A stretch of DNA of 64,000 bases, taken from Leucoraja ocellata. Taxonomy: Eukaryota. Below, piece after piece: positions 4,049 through 36,888 of this stretch. Under the pieces are notes generated by a model. It was given only the letters and a program-made list of their open reading frames with translations. It made no database searches and was not told the origin of the DNA. Position 1 is the stretch's first letter, and every line of letters begins with the position of its first letter. A program made the translations under genes and the position numbers. Where the stretch lies: contig JAWMAR010000054.1 in NCBI GenBank assembly GCA_036785375.1, forward strand, positions 6,696,001 through 6,760,000, given 5' to 3'.

Positions 4049-5419
4049 ATATAATAATTAAACACTTTTGACTCTCTTGACCATGATTAAACAACAGCGT
4101 ATTTCTATACATGGCCCATGTGTAAGGTAAAACCTAATATGAATGACATCACCAAAATAAAACAATATAATACGCTCCCTTAATGTAGGAGATGCCACAA
4201 AACAATAGATGAGATAAAAGAATTGAGATGCCCTGCAGAGGGTATGGAAAACAGGAAAAAAAGTATAAGCAAGTAGTGACTACAAAGCTTAAGGTTTAAA
4301 AGCCTGGAGGTTGGTGTAGGGAAACGCCAGCCAAGTAGCTTACCACAGACTGCCAGGGCAGAGATCATGGCCAAGCGAGCATGATGCAATTCAAGTGTAT
4401 CCAGCAGATGGGGTGTGTCAATGAAATAATGCTATGTGAAGAGTATTAGCTGACATGTATGTGGACAGCAAAGGAAAGCACGTGTCACTGAAGCCTCATT
4501 ATACAAAACTATTTATTTTCAGTTTTCAGAATTCTTCACGTTAATAATGATTATAACAATGGTAGCTACAATAGATGAGCGTTATGCGCTGTGAAAGCCC
4601 GTTGTGCTCTTATTGTTTCCAGCCCCACTGGCATATGATTTTGATTTTCATTCTGATTCTTATCCAACTTGTGTTTGATTGCCAACAATATTTAAGAAGT
4701 CTGAGTAGGCAATGCTTTGAGATCACATTGCTTTTGACAGTGAAATACTTTATCCTTGCATCGCAGAAGGGAGGTGTTATTGGAATACTTTAGATGGTTT
4801 GACAATGGGGGAAGTGATTATGCCAAAACAGCATTTAAAAATATTTTCACACTTTGGACAACCACTATAAAATGATTTTTTTTTCTTACAATAGTAGATA
4901 AGGTTTGGAAATGGGCTTCTGGGAAAAAAATGTAAGTTTTGCTTTTGAATTATAAATTTGTATATGTATCTACCAATGAAGGAATGCAATCTCATTTAAA
5001 TATTAAGTGTATTATAGAGATCAACATGTATAAAAGCCCAAAACATAAAATCTGTCATGAGTTCTGGAAGTCACGGTCACTGGCCAGAAATTAAGATATC
5101 AAACAGTGGACATTAGCATAAAACTATCTAGTACTTGAAAGATGCAATAACTATTACTTCTTGTGTCGTGATGTTCAATAATTAATTAGAATTGTATAAA
5201 TTAGATAAGCTTTTCGGCTCTTAGAATTACCATCACACATTATACGAACAGACTAAAAATGGAAATGTATTATGGATGAGTTAATTCAGATTGCCAGTTT
5301 CATATAAAAATCATCCAAACCCAGTTATCTTATTCAGTGATGCAAATGTTCATGTATTTATGAAGAATAAAGTAGTAGAAAAAGGTTCAATTTCCATTAC
5401 AAATGAAAAGAAATGACCT

Positions 5420-5552
5420 TCTTGCATATGGTGTGCACAGCCTAAAGTTGTAGGACAACTTGTTCTAATTGATCTTATTTAATTGTGCACGCCAGGTTGA
5501 TTGCATTCCTTGAAACAGGGAGGACTACGTGAAGGTTGCAATCTCCCACCCC
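5420..5552 (-). mobile_element. Short non-autonomous retroelement with 5' HDV-like ribozyme fold (copy 1)
   Basis: Perfect 14-bp TSD AAAAGAAATGACCT (5406-5419, 5553-5566); homologous to 36747-36888; 3' end ...ATGCAAGA. Confidence 0.8.
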
Positions 5553-6464
5553 AAAAGAAATGACCTGAACAACTATTACTTAGTATTTACGTTAAGGAAA
5601 AGTGCTGTAGAGTTGCCGAAATATTCACATCTTTCTCCATCACAGTTCTAAATGGCTAAATCAGTGTCCTTTAACTACCTATTCTTTTTGGCATCTACCT
5701 TGTCCATTCTCTCTCTCGGAATCTTAAATATTTCAATTAGATAATTTCTTCAAAGTTCTAGCTTGAGCAAGCCAATCCTCATTTCCCATTCCTCGCTGTC
5801 CATTCCAGGATTCAATCTAGTGAATCAACGCTGCAATGCTTCCAGGATGAGCATGTTTTTTATTTTGAAAATGTATTGACATGAATTGTTAATAAAATTA
5901 TGCAAAGCATATATAGGGTAGACAGTCGGTATCTTTTTCCCAGGATCAAAAAATCAAATATTAGAGGGCACAGCTTTATGGTGGGAGGGGCAGAATTTAA
6001 AAGATGTGTGGGGCACATTTTTTTAAACAGGTAGTGGGTGCCTGGAATATGCTGCTGGGGTGGCGATTGAAGCAGATATGTTAATGGTATTTAAAAGAGT
6101 TTTGGATAGGTATAAGGATTATGCACGGAATGGATGTGGGTTATGTGCCAGCAGGTAAATAATGGTCTTGACATCATGTTCAGCACAGACATTGTCAGCG
6201 GAATGGCCTGTTCTTGTTTTGTACTGTTTTATGCTAAGTATATGTCCACGCACCCTATATTTTGAACATTTTCAGCAGTTTCTTAACTTCAAATGTCCAT
6301 TGCTTCCTAAACCTTGTAAAGAGTGCAAATACACCATTTCCCTTCCTAATTGCATGCTGTGTCTGCAAGTTAAATTTCTGCACTCCACGAACTAGCTTAG
6401 TCAGGTCCCACTACATCAATGTTTAATAGTATGTCACAATTTAAACATGTCATAAATTAAGCAC

Positions 6465-8510: not shown

Positions 8511-8559
8511 TGCAAGAATTGTGCAGAGACTTCAAGAATCATAGGAATGGATGATCGGA

Positions 8560-8715
8560 GCCAACCATGTCATCTATGGGTGCCCACTCTACCACCCACC
8601 AAATGGTGCTCAGGGCCTGGCAGACATTGACGCAGAGACAACCTGGATGCTCAACACCCGGCTTGAGATCTAACTATTCCTTTGGTTTATGTTTCATCCG
8701 CAAGAAGAAGAAGAA
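8560..8715 (+). mobile_element. Vingi/Ingi-like LINE 3' end
   Basis: Reads ANHVIYGCPLYHPPNGAQGLADIDAETTWMLNTRLEI*, then a (GAA)n tail; 10-bp TSD GATGATCGGA (8550-8559, 8716-8725). Confidence 0.75.
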
Positions 8716-11158: not shown

Positions 11159-11586
11159 ACTCAAATCCTTTCGCTATGAAACTCACTAGATTACTAGAAA
11201 CTCACTAGATTACTAGAAGGACAGGTCTGATGTTTCATAGTTTGTAAATATATTTCATCACAGTCATTATGGGAAAAATGCCTACACACGATAGCTTCCT
11301 GCAGATATATTCACTTTTAAGAATGGTGATTAGTGTCTGTAATCTTGGACTCTGGCAGATCACAATATAGTGTTCCCACCTCTAGCTCGCTCTCTAGCTC
11401 CAGTGATGACCACGGACAGCTACAGCATAGTGCAAAAGAGTAACTTTAATAAACAGTTACAGTAAAAGACTTGTGTGTGCAGTAAGTCATTTTACATGGT
11501 GTCACAGCGGTAGACCTGCGTCTCCTGTTTATCGGTTTTTATTTTATTATTTCTTTCTCCTAGTCCTTCCCTCCGTTCGTTTTATC

Positions 11587-14500
11587 ATGTCCCACTCCTG
11601 TCGTCGACCAGACACGTTGGTGTTCAACACAGACATTGTCCATCGCTGGACCGTGTTCCAGCGCGATTTCGAACACTACATTGCCATTGCCCATCCTGAT
11701 GCCACTCCTGCTGTACAGGCTCACCTATTGCTCAACCTCGCGGGACCTGCAGCTATGGATCAGTATGCATCGTTCCATTTCGCCGCCGGAGAGGACCGCA
11801 ACGACCCGGTATGTCTCCTCGCTAAGTTCGCTGCTCTCTGTGATATACCCACCAACAACATCATCGAACGCTTCAAATTCTTCCAGAGGCAGCAGCTGCC
11901 AGGCGAGCCTGTCGGCACTTATATTGCCGCCTTGCATCACCTGGCTCAGCGCTGCCGCCTTGACACAATCACCCCTGACGAATTAATTAGGGACGTCCTG
12001 GTTAATGGTCTCCGAAACGATAGACTGCGTGAGCAGCTCTTAGTGAAACCCGATCTGACACTGCGGGATGCTATGTATGCTGCACGCATGTCCGAAGCCG
12101 TTGGTTCCGTGTCCAGACAGGCTCCCCAGGACATTAACTTCACCGGTCAAGCCGGTCGCCTGACTACACGACGAAACCCCGCGGCTCTCCCCATAAAGGT
12201 CGCCACCTCAACTGTCCCGCGACGCTGCCCCAACTGTTATTTTACAGCACATCCCTCAAACGTTTGCCCCACACAGGTTAAGACCTGTCTTTCCTGTGGC
12301 AAACTCGGCCACTTTTCTGCCGCCTGCCGTTCCCGTGGGAAGCCAGTCCCTGCTCCGAGAAGGAGTCTAAACAACCTCGCCGATCTAAACAACCTTGCAC
12401 TCCCTGATAGCGCTCTGCTTCCTCAGTACGAGCTGGAGGAGCTCCCAGACTCTGATGCACTCCCCCCACAGGAAGATCCAACTATTTTTTCACTCTTGGG
12501 TGCACCTGCTCTGATTACGGATCCCTCTGTGCATGTTACTGTGAACGGCCATTCCTTTTCAGCCAAGGTCGATACTGGCGCTTTCGCCAATGTTATGTCA
12601 ATAAGCCTTTTCAAACAGATCAGATCTGGTGAGAAAGTTCTTCCTGGCGACACCTGCCTCCATGCCTACGGGGGGGGCGTCCTGGTTCCCGTGGGAAAGG
12701 CAACTCTTATCTGCACAGTTCTAGAGACCTCTCGGCCCCTCACTTTCCACCTTCTGGACTCTGACAACGTCACCCTGCTGGGCGCCCGTGCGTGTCAGGA
12801 CTTGGGGCTAGTCTCATTCCACCACAGCATTCACCTGGTGCAGGCCCCCATGGACCCACTGACCGAGTACCCCGACCGCTTTGATGACGTTCTGGGCAAA
12901 CTACCCTGCGACTACAAGATTGTTGTCGACCCCAGCGTCGACCCGGTGATTCGGCCGGCACACCGCGTCTCCTTTGCCATGAAGGGCCGCGTGGAGTCTA
13001 CTCTGCGCGATATGGTGACCATGGGCATCCTCAAGGAGGTGAGCGCTCCCACCAGGTGGGTCTCCACCATGGTCGTCGCAGCCAAGAAGGACAAAAGCGA
13101 AATCCGGATCTGCATCAACCCCAAGGACCTCAACCTTGCCATCAAGCGCCCCCACTACCCCATGCGGACGGTAGAGGACGTTGCTGCACAGGTCGGCCCT
13201 GCAACCGTCTTTTCAGTCCTAGATGCCAAGAGCTCCTTCTGGCAGATCCCTCTGGACGAACGCTCCTCATTCCTCACTACTTTCAGCACTCCCTTCGGCC
13301 GGTTCCGTTTCCTCCGCATGCCGTTTGGGATCAACTCTGCCAGCGAGGTTTTCCAGCGCACCATGGAGCAGCTGTTTGCCGGCTTACCGTGCGCCATCAT
13401 CGTGGATGACATTCTGGTGTACGGGAGGGACGTTGCTGAGCACGACCTGAACCTCCGCAAAGTCCTGGACAGGGCGCGGGTGATAAACCTCAAGCTTAAC
13501 CCGAAGAAATGTCGATTCCGGGTCCCAGAAGTCACTTACGTTGGCCATGTCTTCACGGCAGGGGGTCTCAAGCCCGACCCCCAGAAAACGTCAGCGGTCA
13601 CAGATATGTCCGCTCCTACCGACGTCCCTGGCCTGCAGCGCTTCCTGGGCATGGTCAATTACCTGGGTAAGTTTATACCCGACCTCAGTGAACTGAGTGC
13701 CCCCCTGCGGGAACTAATCAAAATGGACTCTGCGTGGGTCTGGCTCCCGCACCATCAGTCGGCTTTCATGACTCTGAAGTCGAAGCTTGCCGCTACCCCG
13801 ACTTTGAAATTTTTCGACCTGCACCGACCCATTATCCTCACTTGCGATGCCTCCAAGTTTGGTCTCGGTGCCGCTTGTCTGCAGCTCTACGACGGCCTTC
13901 AGCTGCCCGTCTCCTACGCTTCTCGCACCATGACCCCTGCCGAGCAGCGCTACGCCCAGATCGAAAAAGAACTGCTTGCCGTGGTCTTCGCTTGCTCCAA
14001 GTTTAAAGACTACATCCTCGGCAACTCTTTCACCATCGAGACTGACCACCAGCCGTTGGTGACAATCCTGAATAAACCTATCCATGTTGCTTCTTCCCGG
14101 TTGCAGCGCATGATGCTGCAGCTCCAGCGTTTCACGTTCCAGATCGTCTACCGTAAGGGCAAAGACATGTTTGTAGCTGACACCCTTTCTCGTGCTCCGC
14201 TGCCTTCCATTGTCCGCCACCCGTACGAATCCTCCGACCTTCTGGTACTAAACGTCAACATTGTTCCTTCACAGCAGATGCAGTCCCTGGTGCAACACAC
14301 TGCTGATGATTCTGCCCTGCAACAACTTGCGGACGTTATCCGCCGTGGTTGGCCTGACCGTCGCTCCGAACTGCCTGCTGGCGCTGCACCTTATTTCCTC
14401 GTTCGCGATGAACTGGTGCTTCACGCCGGCGTGGTGGTAAAGGGTCACAAAGTCGTGGTGCCTGCCGCACTGCGGGATCATTACTTCCAGGCTGCTCACA

Positions 14501-15810
14501 GCGGCCACCCTGGGGTGGAAGCTACTCTATCCCATGCCCAGAGCCAATTCTACTGGCCAGGTATGGCTCAGGACATCCGTGACAGGGTCTCCGCCTGCGC
14601 TGCCTGCAACACCCTGCACCCCCATCAGCAGCGCCAGCCTCTCCTACAGCCGCCGGCTCCAGAGCTCCCATGGATGGCCGTTGCCACCGACCTCTTTGAG
14701 TGGCGCGGAAAGCACTTCCTGGTCCTGGTGGACTCCTATTCCAGCTGGTTCGAGGTCGACCAGCTGTCCTCCATCACCTCTGCCGCTGTCATCGGGAAGC
14801 TTCGCCGCCACTTCTCCACCTTCGGCTCCCCGGTGACCCACCAGTCCGACAACGGCAGCCAATTCTCCAGCGACGAGCTCAAAACCTTTGCTGCCCGTTG
14901 GAACTTTCACCACATTACCAGCAGCCCCGAGTATCCTCAGAGCAACGGACTTGCTGAGCGGGCCGTACGTAGCGCCAAGGAGCTGCTGGAACACTGCCGC
15001 CTGTTCCGTGCTGATTTCCACCTTGCCCTGCTTAACCTCCGCAACATTTCCCGCGACCCCGCACTCGGTTCCCCTGCGCAGCGCCTTATGTCACGCACCA
15101 CCAGACCTCCCCTGCCGGTCTCCCAGCAGTCCCTTAAGCCCTCAGTACAAAATCCTGCCACTGTCACTGAGCGCATTGTCAAAAAACAGGTGACCCAGAA
15201 GCGCTCCTTCGACAAATCCGCCCGGCTACTTCCACGTCTGCTCCCGGGGCAGGTTGTCCGAATGCAGTCCCCCACTGGCCACTACCGCCTGGCCGTCGTA
15301 GTCGGCGACGCCGGTTCTCCGCGCTCCTACTTCGTCGACTACGAGGGGGCTATCTACCGTCGCTCCCGCCAGCACCTGCTCCTTGTGAATGAGCCCGCTC
15401 TGCCTCCCGCGGATCCTTCTCACCCCCCCATTTCTTCCCGACCTCCCGTTGCCCCTCACGCCCCGACAACACCTCACAACTGTCCGCCCGTTCCCCTGCC
15501 TCGCCTGTCAAGCCGACATCGCCCGCAAAACCCACCTCGCCTGCCAAGCCTCTTTCTCCGCCCACAGCCCCGCGTTCTCCTCCGCCCGCCTCTCCTGCCC
15601 ATCCCCCGGCTGCTGTCCCTTCTGTTCCCGACGATGAGGAGGAGGGCGGTTTACGCACTCGCTCTGGCCGGCTGGTCAGGCCGCCTGTCCGCTACGGGGA
15701 GCTCGCATAGTGTTGTACTGTTGCCGGTGCGGTTGGTGTTCGTAGCGTATGAGCCGTGGTCACTCTGTATAGTACCTGCCATGCTTTTGTTTCTAAGAGG
15801 AAGGATGTAG
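11587..15810 (+). CDS. Gag-Pol polyprotein (gag, zinc knuckles, protease, RT, RNase H, integrase)
   Basis: Stop-free ORF of ~1400 aa from ATG 11587. CLSCGKLGHFSAAC knuckle, protease VDTGA, RT IIVDDILV, RNase H DASKFGLG/TDHQPL, integrase HHCC plus DDE (VDSYS, SDNG, ERAV). The natural C-terminus appears frameshifted near 15475. Confidence 0.93.
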   Translation: MSHSCRRPDTLVFNTDIVHRWTVFQRDFEHYIAIAHPDATPAVQAHLLLNLAGPAAMDQYASFHFAAGEDRNDPVCLLAKFAALCDIPTNNIIERFKFFQRQQLPGEPVGTYIAALHHLAQRCRLDTITPDELIRDVLVNGLRNDRLREQLLVKPDLTLRDAMYAARMSEAVGSVSRQAPQDINFTGQAGRLTTRRNPAALPIKVATSTVPRRCPNCYFTAHPSNVCPTQVKTCLSCGKLGHFSAACRSRGKPVPAPRRSLNNLADLNNLALPDSALLPQYELEELPDSDALPPQEDPTIFSLLGAPALITDPSVHVTVNGHSFSAKVDTGAFANVMSISLFKQIRSGEKVLPGDTCLHAYGGGVLVPVGKATLICTVLETSRPLTFHLLDSDNVTLLGARACQDLGLVSFHHSIHLVQAPMDPLTEYPDRFDDVLGKLPCDYKIVVDPSVDPVIRPAHRVSFAMKGRVESTLRDMVTMGILKEVSAPTRWVSTMVVAAKKDKSEIRICINPKDLNLAIKRPHYPMRTVEDVAAQVGPATVFSVLDAKSSFWQIPLDERSSFLTTFSTPFGRFRFLRMPFGINSASEVFQRTMEQLFAGLPCAIIVDDILVYGRDVAEHDLNLRKVLDRARVINLKLNPKKCRFRVPEVTYVGHVFTAGGLKPDPQKTSAVTDMSAPTDVPGLQRFLGMVNYLGKFIPDLSELSAPLRELIKMDSAWVWLPHHQSAFMTLKSKLAATPTLKFFDLHRPIILTCDASKFGLGAACLQLYDGLQLPVSYASRTMTPAEQRYAQIEKELLAVVFACSKFKDYILGNSFTIETDHQPLVTILNKPIHVASSRLQRMMLQLQRFTFQIVYRKGKDMFVADTLSRAPLPSIVRHPYESSDLLVLNVNIVPSQQMQSLVQHTADDSALQQLADVIRRGWPDRRSELPAGAAPYFLVRDELVLHAGVVVKGHKVVVPAALRDHYFQAAHSGHPGVEATLSHAQSQFYWPGMAQDIRDRVSACAACNTLHPHQQRQPLLQPPAPELPWMAVATDLFEWRGKHFLVLVDSYSSWFEVDQLSSITSAAVIGKLRRHFSTFGSPVTHQSDNGSQFSSDELKTFAARWNFHHITSSPEYPQSNGLAERAVRSAKELLEHCRLFRADFHLALLNLRNISRDPALGSPAQRLMSRTTRPPLPVSQQSLKPSVQNPATVTERIVKKQVTQKRSFDKSARLLPRLLPGQVVRMQSPTGHYRLAVVVGDAGSPRSYFVDYEGAIYRRSRQHLLLVNEPALPPADPSHPPISSRPPVAPHAPTTPHNCPPVPLPRLSSRHRPQNPPRLPSLFLRPQPRVLLRPPLLPIPRLLSLLFPTMRRRAVYALALAGWSGRLSATGSSHSVVLLPVRLVFVAYEPWSLCIVPAMLLFLRGRM

Positions 15811-28019: not shown

Positions 28020-28482
28020 GGCATTAAACAACAATCTTTCTCTCAATGTCAGCAAGATCGAGGAGCTAATTATTGACTTTTGAAGGGAAAAAAACAACAA
28101 CCTGTCTTAGTCAATGGGTTTTATAGCGGAGAGAGTCAATAACTTCAAGTACCTAGGTGTGCATATTTCTGGGCCTAGCACATTGATGCAATCATAAAGA
28201 AAGCCCCTCAATACCTTTACTTCCCTAGAAAATTGGAGAGATTTGATATGTCGACGAATACTCTCTTGAATTTCTACAGGTGTACACAAGACAGCATATT
28301 GACTGGTTGTATCTCAGCCTTGTTTGGCAACTCGAATGCCCAAGAGTGAAGGAGATTATTAAAAGTAGTGGTCACTGCCCGGTCCATCATGTGTACTGAC
28401 TTCTCCATCACCAAAGGGTTCAAAAGGAGGTGCTGTTTCAAAAATGCAGCCAGCATCATCAAAGACCCATACCACCCTGGCA
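28020..28482 (+). mobile_element. Degraded Rex1/Babar-like LINE fragment (tail resumes ~33834-33870)
   Basis: FKYLGVHIS and AASIIKDPYHPG motifs; tail remnant CATATGACAATTA...TCTTGAC after the Gypsy LTR. Confidence 0.65.
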
Positions 28483-29926
28483 TAACCCCAATGTCCTGCT
28501 ACGTAAATTCCACAAACTGTGCGACCTACCCTCTAACCGTATCTTGGAAAGAGCCAAGTTCTTCACGCGACAACTGCTTCCTGATGAACCTGTTGAACGA
28601 TTTATTTCTGATTTAAAATACATGGCTCAGCGATGTCGCTTCGGGGCAATGTCCAATGAGTTAATACGGGACAAACTTGTCAGTTGCATGTCTGACCAAA
28701 AGCTCAAGATGGAACCACTACGTAATGTTGATCTGACTCTTGAACAAGCAGTGCATGCCTGCCGCATGTCTGAAATTGTGGCCCCACTGAGCGACCAGTT
28801 TGACACTCAGAAAAAGAGTATAAACCTGACAGGCTTTATTAAACGAGCCACACCGACAGCCACCAGAAGATTTGTGAATGAACCGCCACGAAAGGCTAAT
28901 CGAGGATTTATGAATGAACTGCCGGAAAGGTGTCCAAACTGTAACTACTTCCACAACAAGGGACGGCTATTCTGTCCAGCGAACGGTAAGCCATGCAACT
29001 ATTGCAAGAAGATGAACCATTTCGCCGTTTGCTGCAGGTCCCGTGGGAGTAGCAATTCTAGCTCGGCTTCTAATCTGTACCTGTTGCAACAAGACCAAAC
29101 ATTTTCAGACTCTCAGGACCAGCCCGAATCTGCCCACGAGGATGATCCAATTAGCTCATATGAAGAGTCCACTGTTCATACCCTCCTCCACACAGCTGGT
29201 AAGCTCTTGGATCCCTCTGTGTCTATGCTAATTAATAACAAGCCTGTGCAGGCCCAATTGGATACCGGGGCGCGCGTGAATGTAATGTCCCTGAATGTTT
29301 CCAACAAGATAAGAAATAATGAGACCTTGATGAGAGGCGGCTCTGCCTTGCATGCCTATGGGGGGGAGGTTTTCATCCACTTGGAAAAACTAGCTTCAAA
29401 TGTGTATTGGAAAATACAGCTAAGAATCTGACTTTCTACGTCCTAAAATCAAACTCTGTGACTACTGGGCATCCATGCATGCCAGGACCTTGGGTTAGTC
29501 TCTTTCGACCGCTCCGTTCACAAGTTACTTACATCTGATGATGCAACTCGAAACTACCCTGATCTGTTCGATGACAAGCTGGGCAAGCTGCCTGTGACTT
29601 ATAAAATTGCTGTTGACCCCACTGTTGACCCAGTTGTCCATGCCCCCCACCGCGTGCCACATGCCATGCGTGACAGAATCCAGACTGAACTTAAAAACAC
29701 GGTGTCCATGGGTGTACTCGTGGAAATCAGTGACCCTACAGACCAGGTCTCCACCAAAGACAAAGACGAGCTCCAAGTGTGCATTAATCCAAGAGACTTA
29801 AACACTGCAATCAAGTGCCTACATTATCCGATGAGACCTGTTGAAGACGTCTTGGCCCAAATTGGTCGCGCAACAGTGTTCGCCGTACTAGATGCAAAAA
29901 GCTAGTTCTGGCAGATAACTCTAGAT

Positions 29927-30122
29927 CAGATCCCCAAAGGAGAAATGGCAAATTTCAGGGGGGCACAGAAAAAAATTGGGATTTAGGGGGCCACATGTTC
30001 AATGAAGGGGGCCACTTTTTTTCAGCTAATAATGTCAGGGAGGGCCACAGAAAAATTCTGTCCTGGGCCTAGCACATTGATGCCCAAGGAGGCCATGAGC
30101 TAAAAAAGGTTGGGAACCACTG
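29927..30122. mobile_element. hAT (Charlie-like) MITE inserted in the Gypsy RT
   Basis: Ends GGTTGGGAACCACTG; degenerate 8-bp TSD CTCTAGAT/CTCTGGTT; RT frame resumes afterwards. Confidence 0.75.
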
Positions 30123-32657
30123 CTCTGGTTGACGGGTCCTCGAACCTCACTACGTTTGCCACGCCATATAGCGGTTTCAAATTTCTCAGAATGCCATTTG
30201 GCATCAATTCGGCTAGCGAAGTCCTTCAGAGAACCATGGAACAGCTGTTGACTGGCTTCCCATGTGCCATCATTGTAGATGATATCCTGGTGTATGGTAA
30301 AGACATAGCGGAGCACAACCACAATCTCAAGTAGATTCTGGACAGGGTACGCGCGATTAACCTAAAGTTCAACCCCAAGAAATGCAAGTTCCGCGTTGCA
30401 GAGGTCACCTATGTCGGACACGTATTCACTCGCAATGGTTTGAAGCCAGACACGAAGAAAACTGCAGCCATCCACGAAATGCCTGCCCCTGTCGATGTGC
30501 TCAGCCTACAACGATTTCTGGGTATGGTGAACTATCTGGGAAAGTTCATACCCAATCTCAGTGAACTCAGTTCACCACTGAGACAGCTCACCCGCAAGGA
30601 CACTGAATGGACCAGGTACCAGCAACACCAACAGGTATTTGACTTTTTAAAACTACAGCTGGCCAGCGCTCCTACCTTGACATACTTCGACCTGAAGCGA
30701 CCTGTCAAAATAACCTGGGATGCCTCGCAATACGGATTGGGCACAGCCTGCCTTCAAACATCTGCCAACGGCACTGTACTACCTGTATCATATGCCTCTC
30801 GCACCATGACAGACACCAAACAGCGCTAGGCCCAAATCGAGAAGGAGCTGCTAGCTGAGGTCTTTGCTTGCTCCAAATTTAAAGATTTCATCTTTGGGAA
30901 CACTTTCACAGTTGAAACTGACCATCAACCACTTGTAACCATCCTGAACAAACCTATCCATGCAGCACCTGCACGTCTGCAGCGCATGATGATGCAGCTC
31001 CAGCGATTCGACTTCAGAATTGTTTACAAATAAGGGAAGGATATGTTCGTTGCTGACACTCTCTCTCGTGTGCCATGTGCTTCCAGTGAACGACATCCCT
31101 TATGAATGTGATGAGCTTACTGTTCTAAATGTCCACTTTGTTCCCACGGAACGCCTGCGTCACCTGGCTGAACACACAGCCGCTGACGGGACTCTACAGC
31201 TGCTCTGGTCTATTATCAAAAGAGGCTGGCCAGAAAACAGTCCAGCACACGCTTGGAGGCACAGCCGTTCTTCCTAGTCCGTGATGAGTTGGTAATACAA
31301 GACAGTGTCATTGTTAAGGGTCACAAAATCGTGATCCCATCATCCTTACAAGACGAATACTATAAAAAGTTACACAACGGCCACCCAGGCACCGAGGCCA
31401 CGCTGGCTCATGCACAGAGCATGTTCTACTGACCTGGGATGTCCAAGTACATACGGGACAGAACAGCATCCTGCCCCATCTGCAACAGTTTGCCACCACC
31501 AACAGAAACAGCCTCTGCTACAACAACCCCCACCAGCACTGCCTTGGACATCTCTGGCAGCGGACATTTTCGAATGGCACGGTAAACACTACCTAGTCCT
31601 AGTCGACTCCTACTCCAACTGGTTCGAACTCGACTGACTGCCCACCATCACATCCAACATGCTTATACAAAAACTTCAAAGACACTTTTCTGTATTTGGC
31701 GCACCAGTTCGGCTGCAAACTGACAACGGAAGACAATTCACCAGCCAAGCATTCAAACACTTTGCCAGACGATGGAACTTTCACCATGTTACAAGCAGCC
31801 CTGAATACCCCCAATCCAACGGGCTCGCTGAACAAGCCGTCAGGAACACAGAACAACTGATGGAACGCTCCCACATTGCCAAGTCTGATGTCTACCTCGA
31901 CCTTTTGAATCTCAGAAACATCTCCAGGGACGGGGTCCTGGGTTCACCTGCTCAACGCCGGATGTCTCTGACAACACGACCTCCAATACCAGTTGCCCAG
32001 CGAAAGCTGAAGCCACAGGTAATTAATCCAGCTGCGGCCCAGAAGCGCATTCAGGAGAAACACAACATCTAGAAGGGCTCCTATGACAAGTCCAGCAAAC
32101 CACTGAAGCCGCTATTGCAGGGTCAAGTGGTCCATATGCAGACTAATGTGGGACATACCCGACTGGGTTTCGTTATCGGCCCGTCTAAGGAACCCCGATC
32201 CTACCTTATCAACGCCGATAGTGTTTTGTACAGACATAGGCGTCAGCATCTGCTGCTTGTGAACGAATCCATATGCTCCACCTCTACCTTTTAAGCCCCC
32301 TGCTGCTCCTGTTCCCATTCCCAGAGTGCACTCTCCACCTCGGTTGGCTACCCCCTCTAACCACGTTAACATTCCCACATGCTCACCCCGCCAGTCACCT
32401 CAACTGTCGCCAACGGCATCGTCCTTCTCTGTCCTCCTCCCCCACTAACATTGCTCGTGCGGAGGGAGAGGGGTTCGTCCGTACGTGTTCGGGTCGAATT
32501 AGTCGACCTCCTGATAGATACGGTGAATAAGTTTAATTACGTGTGTTTAACATTCACCGTTTAAATTTACCTAACAACCTTTTCTTTTTACGGGGAAGGA
32601 TGTAGATTGGTTATTGCGTGTGAACCAAGGTGTAGCATCACTAACTCCACCTTACTG

Positions 32658-36746: not shown

Positions 36747-36888
36747 TTCTTCTTCTTCTTGCTTATGGCGTGCACAACCTAAAGTTGTAGGACAACTTGT
36801 TCTACTTGATCTTACTTGACTGTGCACGCCGGGTTGGTTGCATTCCTCGAAACAGAGAGGACCACGTGAAGGTTGCAATCTTCCATCC
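36747..36888 (-). mobile_element. Short non-autonomous retroelement with 5' HDV-like ribozyme fold (copy 2)
   Basis: TSD GTTCCTCAGTGCC/GTTCTTCAGTGCC (12/13); (GAA)n tail; homologous to 5420-5552. Confidence 0.8.

Follow-up and report, generated by a model that had tools for sequence, protein, structure and literature searches.

A 133-nt element of a skate genome carries both ends of a Vingi-like LINE and a minimal HDV-like head

The short element described here unites the two ends of one LINE, occurs in thousands of copies bordered by target-site duplications, keeps a covarying HDV-like fold at its 5' end and is present in RNA with 5' ends at its first nucleotide, G1. It is very probably an internally deleted derivative of a Vingi-like LINE, with a head that likely cuts the RNA out of read-through transcripts at G1. 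A sequence-only reading had proposed a promoter-less mini-retroelement released by a ribozyme and mobilised by a Vingi/Ingi-type LINE. The proposed kind of element gained support from a LINE with both ends, from the catalytic C44 of the family majority and from starts flush with G1; lack of a promoter and self-cleavage are the parts that we infer.

The insertion, its family and the fold

The window is the whole stretch of DNA that was analysed, 64,000 nt of a Leucoraja ocellata assembly (contig JAWMAR010000054.1, positions 6,696,001 to 6,760,000). Coordinates below are those of the window.

5420..5552, minus strand: whole element, 133 nt, a decayed copy with 8 differences from the family majority
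5553..5566, minus strand: 5' target-site duplication, 14 bp, flush with G1
5406..5419, minus strand: 3' target-site duplication, 14 bp, identical to the 5' one
5499..5552, minus strand: HDV-like head, 54 nt, with P1, P2, P3 and P1.1
Helices of the head, element positions: P1 1-7/30-36, P2 10-16/48-54, P3 17-19/27-29
Loops and joining segments of the head, element positions: J1/2 8-9, L3 20-26, P1.1 C22-G37, J4/2 44-47
Head of the 5420..5552 element, element positions 37-43: just 7 nt in place of J1/4 and P4
5509..5509, minus strand: catalytic position 44, G in this copy, C in the family
5454..5475, minus strand: A-rich junction, element positions 78-99
36757..36889, minus strand: another member of the family, more strongly decayed, G at position 44, bordered by a 12-bp duplication that has one mismatch

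The ribozyme-like parse of the minus strand from 5552 to 5499 proved correct letter for letter. As had been read from the sequence, P1 opens with G1.U36 and contains one mismatch (U5/U32), P2 is perfect (7 of 7 pairs), P3 has a mismatch (C19/A27), P4 is nearly absent, with 7 nt only where it would stand with J1/4, and G1 lies exactly at the edge of a perfect 14-bp duplication. The claim that a tRNA head is missing held as well, since ARAGORN reported no tRNA at any of 4 loci. Position 44, the catalytic one, is G, as stated, and further defects are A27 (window 5526) and T32 (window 5521). Having neither the catalytic C nor an intact P3, this copy is predicted to be inactive; in folding without pseudoknots it was no better than its shuffles (z -0.85). 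In its sequence context G44 had 21 exact matches genome-wide, and 54 of 56 copies with T32 keep C44, the two exceptions being the window copy and its near-identical twin L002. Since G44 is rare and T32 copies mostly carry C44, the window copy decayed after insertion. A dead G44/T32 subfamily was considered and rejected on these counts: no catalytically dead subfamily spread, and the window copy is an ordinary dead insertion. Both window copies have C44G and G32T, two rare changes, in common despite an identity of 89 %, by local gene conversion or by chance.

In the 3.44-Gb assembly a 21-base word from the head occurred exactly 5,446 times and one from the 3' end 5,860 times; the reversed controls gave 0 each, thus the family is not a product of chance. 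On contig 1, 59 head-word and 64 tail-word matches with an overlap of 18 correspond to ~210 copies, and extrapolation from this overlap gives ~19,000 copies in the assembly, haplotype duplicates included; the haploid number is maybe nearer half, because many loci come in near-identical pairs. Word-selected copies diverge on average by 6.4 % from the family majority. Among 80 full-length independent copies a duplication was found in 68 and was flush with G1 in 55. Its length is mostly 11-12 bp and the tail is a GAA simple repeat, so that the family bears the marks of retrotransposition, a variable duplication and a simple-repeat tail. When loci were selected only by the 3' word, 20 of 22 independent ones started at G1 and the other two were truncated; 39 of 48 further loci, selected for lacking the exact head word, reached the first six positions. 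The 5' ends are therefore flush and not ragged, in agreement with the sequence-only reading. Foreign sequence before position 64 was rejected as a feature of the family: among 188 pattern matches, the 100 listed were indel variants, truncations and interrupted copies. No candidate came out of a DNA search with the last 79 nt at the 3' end. The base preceding G1 was T in 59 and G in just 5 of 84 independent full-length copies, which may reflect an endonuclease preference or a ribozyme requirement.

The family majority restores what the window copy has lost. C44 opens J4/2, P3 is intact, G1.U36, U20 and G25 are present, C22-G37 forms P1.1, and only 7 nt separate P1 from C44; whether the consensus has the catalytic C had been one of the proposed checks. 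Among 35 independent word-selected heads, C44 was kept in 29, G1 and U36 in 33 each and G25 in 31, and all 18 pairs together with C44 were intact in 19. C44T and G45A are about equally common in genomic copies (6/35 and 7/35). The expectation of covarying helices was borne out in part, across eight element families of this genome and not within the focal family. Within the latter no two-sided pair changes were seen, the family being too young. Across the eight families, compared by one author-chosen copy each, all from this genome, all 88 cells of P1, P3 and P1.1 are paired, and 8 of 11 pairs have changed on both sides; none of 500 shuffles was as good, and slid controls paired in 42-56 %. For P2 the paired cells number 54 of 56, and each of its 7 pairs has changed on both sides, a result favoured by the location of its 3' strand by best pairing. 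These families thus have in common the nested double pseudoknot with covariation; the nested fold and the catalytic features are among those listed for CPEB3 and HDV in PMC4836649. A strict HDV-like descriptor, the test proposed beforehand, gave more than 120 matches on intact family copies (fetched loci, duplicates included) and 0 matches in 100 dinucleotide shuffles of the window; the real window also gave 0, because both of its copies are mutated. The CPEB3 and HDV ribozyme models in Rfam (threshold of RF00622, 35 bits) matched neither the window copy nor the intact copies L025 and L160.

Origin from a Vingi-like LINE

The LINE that had been asked for, of autonomous type and with both ends of the element, was found at locus L514. 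Element positions 3-77 and 95-133 stand there at opposite ends of a 2.77-kb insertion, which has its own duplication and contains endonuclease and reverse transcriptase remnants between the two matching ends. Both ends thus match one autonomous-type LINE. The parent LINE is ~3 kb long and encodes an endonuclease/reverse transcriptase; its first ~77 and last 34-39 nt make up the element. The corresponding parts of the window copy, with the arms of a stem discussed below, are:

5476..5552, minus strand: stretch in common with the parent 5' end, element positions 1-77 (L514; 57/70 identical, between two decayed copies)
5420..5453, minus strand: stretch in common with the parent 3' end, element positions 100-133 (33/34 identical to L528)
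5484..5494, minus strand: predicted 5' arm of an end-pairing stem, positions 59-69, from the parent 5' UTR
5429..5439, minus strand: predicted 3' arm of the same stem, positions 114-124, from the parent 3' UTR, with one pair broken in this copy

Positions 100-133 comprise the last codons, the stop, the 3' UTR and the start of the GAA tail of the parent. In the A-rich junction positions 95-99 match some parent copies, and the remainder is without a parent match. Among 65 independent loci picked by the 3' word, two had the end of the reading frame before position 100. The parent 3' region, with 939 first-look candidates, continues upstream into the reverse transcriptase. All parent copies seen are broken. 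Their heads are P4-less too, with CUAA as J4/2 as in one subfamily of the short element. The element had earlier been described as a mini-retroelement; more exactly, it is the internal-deletion product of its LINE and not an independent SINE. At three further loci (L177, L178 and L476) this parent has lost its interior independently and with different junctions, leaving ~135 and 400 nt, hence the miniature has more than one origin.

The Vingi-type 3' ends of the window (8559-8715 and ~60780-60857), to which the tail of the element had been likened, belong to a sister family, A, and not to the parent. LINE families A, B, C and D were all rejected as parents, for their 3' UTRs are common with the element only over the last dozen bases. 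They start with an HDV-like head as well, with a longer P4 region, so that HDV-like 5' heads occur in five Vingi-like LINE families of this genome. The endonuclease and reverse transcriptase matches of L514 are below the Pfam cut-offs and are clear in sister families B and D, with both of which the parent is colinear; no RNase H match was obtained in the C-terminal parts of B and D. A compact single ORF with an APE endonuclease and a reverse transcriptase and no RNase H has been described for the Vingi clade (review PMC13708176). By this layout the parent is called Vingi-like.

In the 3' domain of the element, which stands out against letter shuffles (z -4.4), a stem is predicted whose arms are nearly 3 kb apart in the parent LINE. 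In six families the 45 nt behind the ribozyme were compared with the 45 nt before the tail, windows chosen after inspection, and the cognate assignment of 5' to 3' ends was the best of 720 permutations. For single families the pairing was modest, 3-49 of 300 shuffles being as good (49 for the parent), and one non-cognate pair of ends scored nearly as high as the best cognate pair. A pairing of LINE 5' and 3' UTRs in the focal and sister families is therefore suggestive.

A cycle that would combine these properties begins with a host promoter that transcribes through a copy of the element. The head would fold and cleave just 5' of G1, and the stem of ~10 pairs would tie the 3' UTR to the stretch that follows the ribozyme and hold both ends for the LINE protein. 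Starting from the GAA tail, the parental endonuclease/reverse transcriptase could then write a copy of the RNA into a new site, and insertion by this protein would leave duplications of 11-12 bp flush with G1. Cleavage and the role of the stem are the presumed steps here, as is the mobilisation in trans by the parent protein, which we infer because the ends are common to element and LINE.

RNA 5' ends and competing explanations

Raw reads were taken from four RNA runs of 2026 (X21-X24) of two studies, 1-5 % of each run; the source organism may not be Leucoraja ocellata, and the reads are mostly 90-95 % alike. They were mapped to the intact copy L057, with G1 at 1501. Many sense reads join the element at G1 to an adapter that we take to be the template-switch oligonucleotide. 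In X21 the sense depth joined to the adapter was ~1,213 at 1487-1495 versus 1,828 just inside G1, in X22 901 versus 1,632, and for antisense reads of these two single-cell runs 0 versus ~500. The bulk runs had the same junction, with 261 and 291 loose ends at 1500 and an adapter visible as a mixed consensus (agreement 0.62 and 0.69). Adapter reads start at only 16-20 places, and their depth does not count distinct molecules or loci. Libraries of the 3'-tag type retain the adapter only on short cDNAs, thus the shares among adapter reads are not the shares in the cell. Read-through from mixed flanks was also common (614-965 reads at 1501). Behind the tail, runs of A were present in 297-429 reads, where tailing and oligo-dT priming look alike; the single copy checked contained no AAUAAA.

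The main rival to self-cleavage accepts the same bipartite origin and regards G1 as the transcription start of an internal Pol II promoter like Pr77 of L1Tc, with the fold as a relic or a second function. We consider it improbable as a full replacement, and a promoter may coexist with self-cleavage. Template switching marks every 5' end, capped or cut alike, so that these reads fit a start as well as a cut; a single stretch of 77 nt serves trypanosomes both as a promoter and as a ribozyme (PMC4035085), and the 5' part in common with our parent LINE is likewise ~77 nt long. The sequence variants in the reads argue against it. C44T was found in 52 of 2089 sense reads of X21 (2.5 %) versus 39 of 517 antisense reads (7.5 %), and in X22 in 3.6 % versus 5.5 %; if all adapter reads keep C44, 2.5 % and 2.4 % are expected. 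In contrast, G45A of the same CpG was not depleted (336/2089 sense versus 53/514 antisense in X21; 16 % versus 10 % in both runs). Changes that break pairs were depleted more than changes in loops: the median ratio of sense to antisense was 0.41 for fourteen damaging and 0.95 for sixteen tolerated changes (p = 0.011), with the classes set after the table had been seen and reads that are not independent. Four rows run contrary, the damaging G49A (2.5) and G32C (1.3) and the tolerated G32A (0.42) and C33T (0.34). The sister-family heads, which change letters and keep pairs, speak for selection on the RNA structure and likewise against a mere promoter. Taken together, the sense-only junctions at G1 and the depletion of fold-breaking changes appear to favour self-cleavage over a promoter start.

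That the adapter junctions are a library artefact, with a true bipartite origin and a fold that may be inactive today, is very unlikely. The element begins with four G, runs of G are a known trigger of strand invasion, and the adapter reads start at few places. However, seven G stand at the junction, three of them preceding the four of the element, and no depth is lost at 1498-1504, whereas invasion would overlap both runs; the junction is thus consistent with a genuine end at G1 (± 1). It recurs in two studies and two types of library, and an artefact leaves the depletion of C44T unexplained. Least probable is that the element is a SINE transcribed by Pol III from G1, with A and B boxes that have degenerated. 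Four consecutive T are absent, and position 5 has an A-box-like stretch (6 of 9 letters). Against this reading, no tRNA or tRNA-like head is present, the top B-box match lies in the A-rich junction with the candidate at ~38-46 outside the top three, sense reads show no depletion of C41T or G42A (0.89 and 0.97), and a LINE has this head as its 5' end.

Known elements and ribozymes

The preferred reading, an internally deleted LINE with a self-cleaving head, places the element in a known design: R2 SIDEs and NARTc/RIME are built in this way, and the element is a bipartite non-autonomous LINE as defined in PMC5786205. It differs from the known systems in size, copy number, the P4-less head and the Vingi-like parent. 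Like the R2 SIDEs of Drosophila (Eickbush and Eickbush 2012, PMC3414825), the element combines a 5' HDV-like ribozyme fold and its parent's 3' end with a middle without parent match, has precise 5' junctions and would, as we suppose for the 133-nt element, rely on the parent protein. R2Dwi_SIDE has 529 bp, is confined to rDNA, is represented by ~70 trace reads and carries a full P1-P4 ribozyme with demonstrated cleavage, whereas our element has 133 bp, is dispersed in ~10^4 copies and is P4-less with predicted cleavage. NARTc/L1Tc, RIME/ingi and the SIDERs (PMC4035085) are similar in being short partners of Ingi-clade LINEs with a common head of ~77 nt, an HDV-like ribozyme that cuts at +1, as our head likely does at G1; they differ by their protist hosts, a P4 helix and a demonstrated promoter, in contrast to the vertebrate host and the GAA tail seen here. 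Bipartite non-autonomous LINEs that retain only the 5' and 3' ends of a LINE, as the element does, include derivatives of Vingi-1_EE, and Vingi is one of four clades that make them (Kojima 2018, PMC5786205). The clades named there with a 5' ribozyme are R1, R2, R4, RTE and Ingi as well as LOA, without Vingi, while the present genome has five Vingi-like families with such heads. A literature search, mostly of openly available articles, returned no HDV-like ribozyme on a Vingi-like retrotransposon or on one of skates or cartilaginous fishes; Repbase or Dfam may catalogue the family.

Among ribozymes, the minimal HDV-like (theta) ribozymes (PMC10879173) also have no P4 domain and the catalytic C first in J4/2. 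That study placed nearly 99 % of its minimal matches in phages, often near tRNA genes, in contrast to the animal LINE and its miniature here. If the head is active, a P4-less HDV-like ribozyme, to date reported nearly exclusively from phages, would exist at thousands of intact sites of one vertebrate genome, and host transcripts could be cut wherever an intron or UTR contains a copy in sense orientation. With the mammalian CPEB3 ribozyme (RF00622; PMC4836649) the head has G1.U36, U20, G25 and a single-pair P1.1 in common, as well as the same L3 and the same numbering up to position 37. Unlike the latter, the focal family is P4-less, has other letters in P1, P2 and P3 and does not match RF00622.

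LINE family D (L227-L229, L231 and L232; e.g., G000:C40:7970533-7973660) is 3.13 kb long with ~96 % pairwise identity, and its head passes RF00622: 56 of 59 scored candidates genome-wide reached at least the cut-off of 35, the best with 64.7 bits. It is a candidate lead on the origin of the CPEB3 ribozyme, and the sister families would then be a possible source. PMC8233481 contains no passage on an origin or on retrotransposons or transposition.

Kojima (2018) leaves open why two-ended miniatures come from some LINE clades only; a stem between the ends would be an explanation, and it also matters for gene-writing templates based on Vingi with both UTRs (PMC13708176). A search of mostly open literature gave no long-range pairing of the UTRs of a non-LTR retrotransposon together with a ribozyme. 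It is an attractive but doubtful idea that 133 bases come close to the smallest complete template for retrotransposition, with a P4-less ribozyme of 54 nt, active in animal cells and clasped to the 3' UTR by an end stem general to Vingi-like LINE RNAs, and that the same clade was the source of the CPEB3 ribozyme.

Several further observations were made beside the family itself. Twelve distinct insertions of the parent LINE (L440/L451, L441, L459/L474, L464, L470, L479, L485/L490, L488/L494, L492/L500, L505, L517 and L518) have an inverted 5' segment, which in seven of the twelve ends at positions 72-110, in the A-rich stretch that follows the stem arm; this would be compatible with twin priming at a time when the 5' head lies close to the 3' end. 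A second short family of ~170 nt (L105:2939-3002, minus strand; L244 and L245) has a different P4-less HDV-like head, a duplication and a GAA tail, and L105 scores 36.0 bits on RF00622. An element of ~210 nt at L202 and L207 (from 1512, plus strand) consists of an HDV-like head and the start of a reading frame, with a GAA tail and a duplication. At L054:1724-1791 (plus strand) a CPEB3-like head of 35.7 bits starts ~37 nt into a direct repeat of 20 bp and lacks a GAA tail. The window also contains an open frame of 1,459 codons (11431-15810, plus strand) with a broken relative at ~28400-32072 (plus strand), both presumably, by their motifs, of a Gypsy-like LTR retroelement. Broken reading frames at 56115-56920 (minus strand) resemble, in our judgement, a ZFP36-type gene with tandem CCCH zinc fingers.
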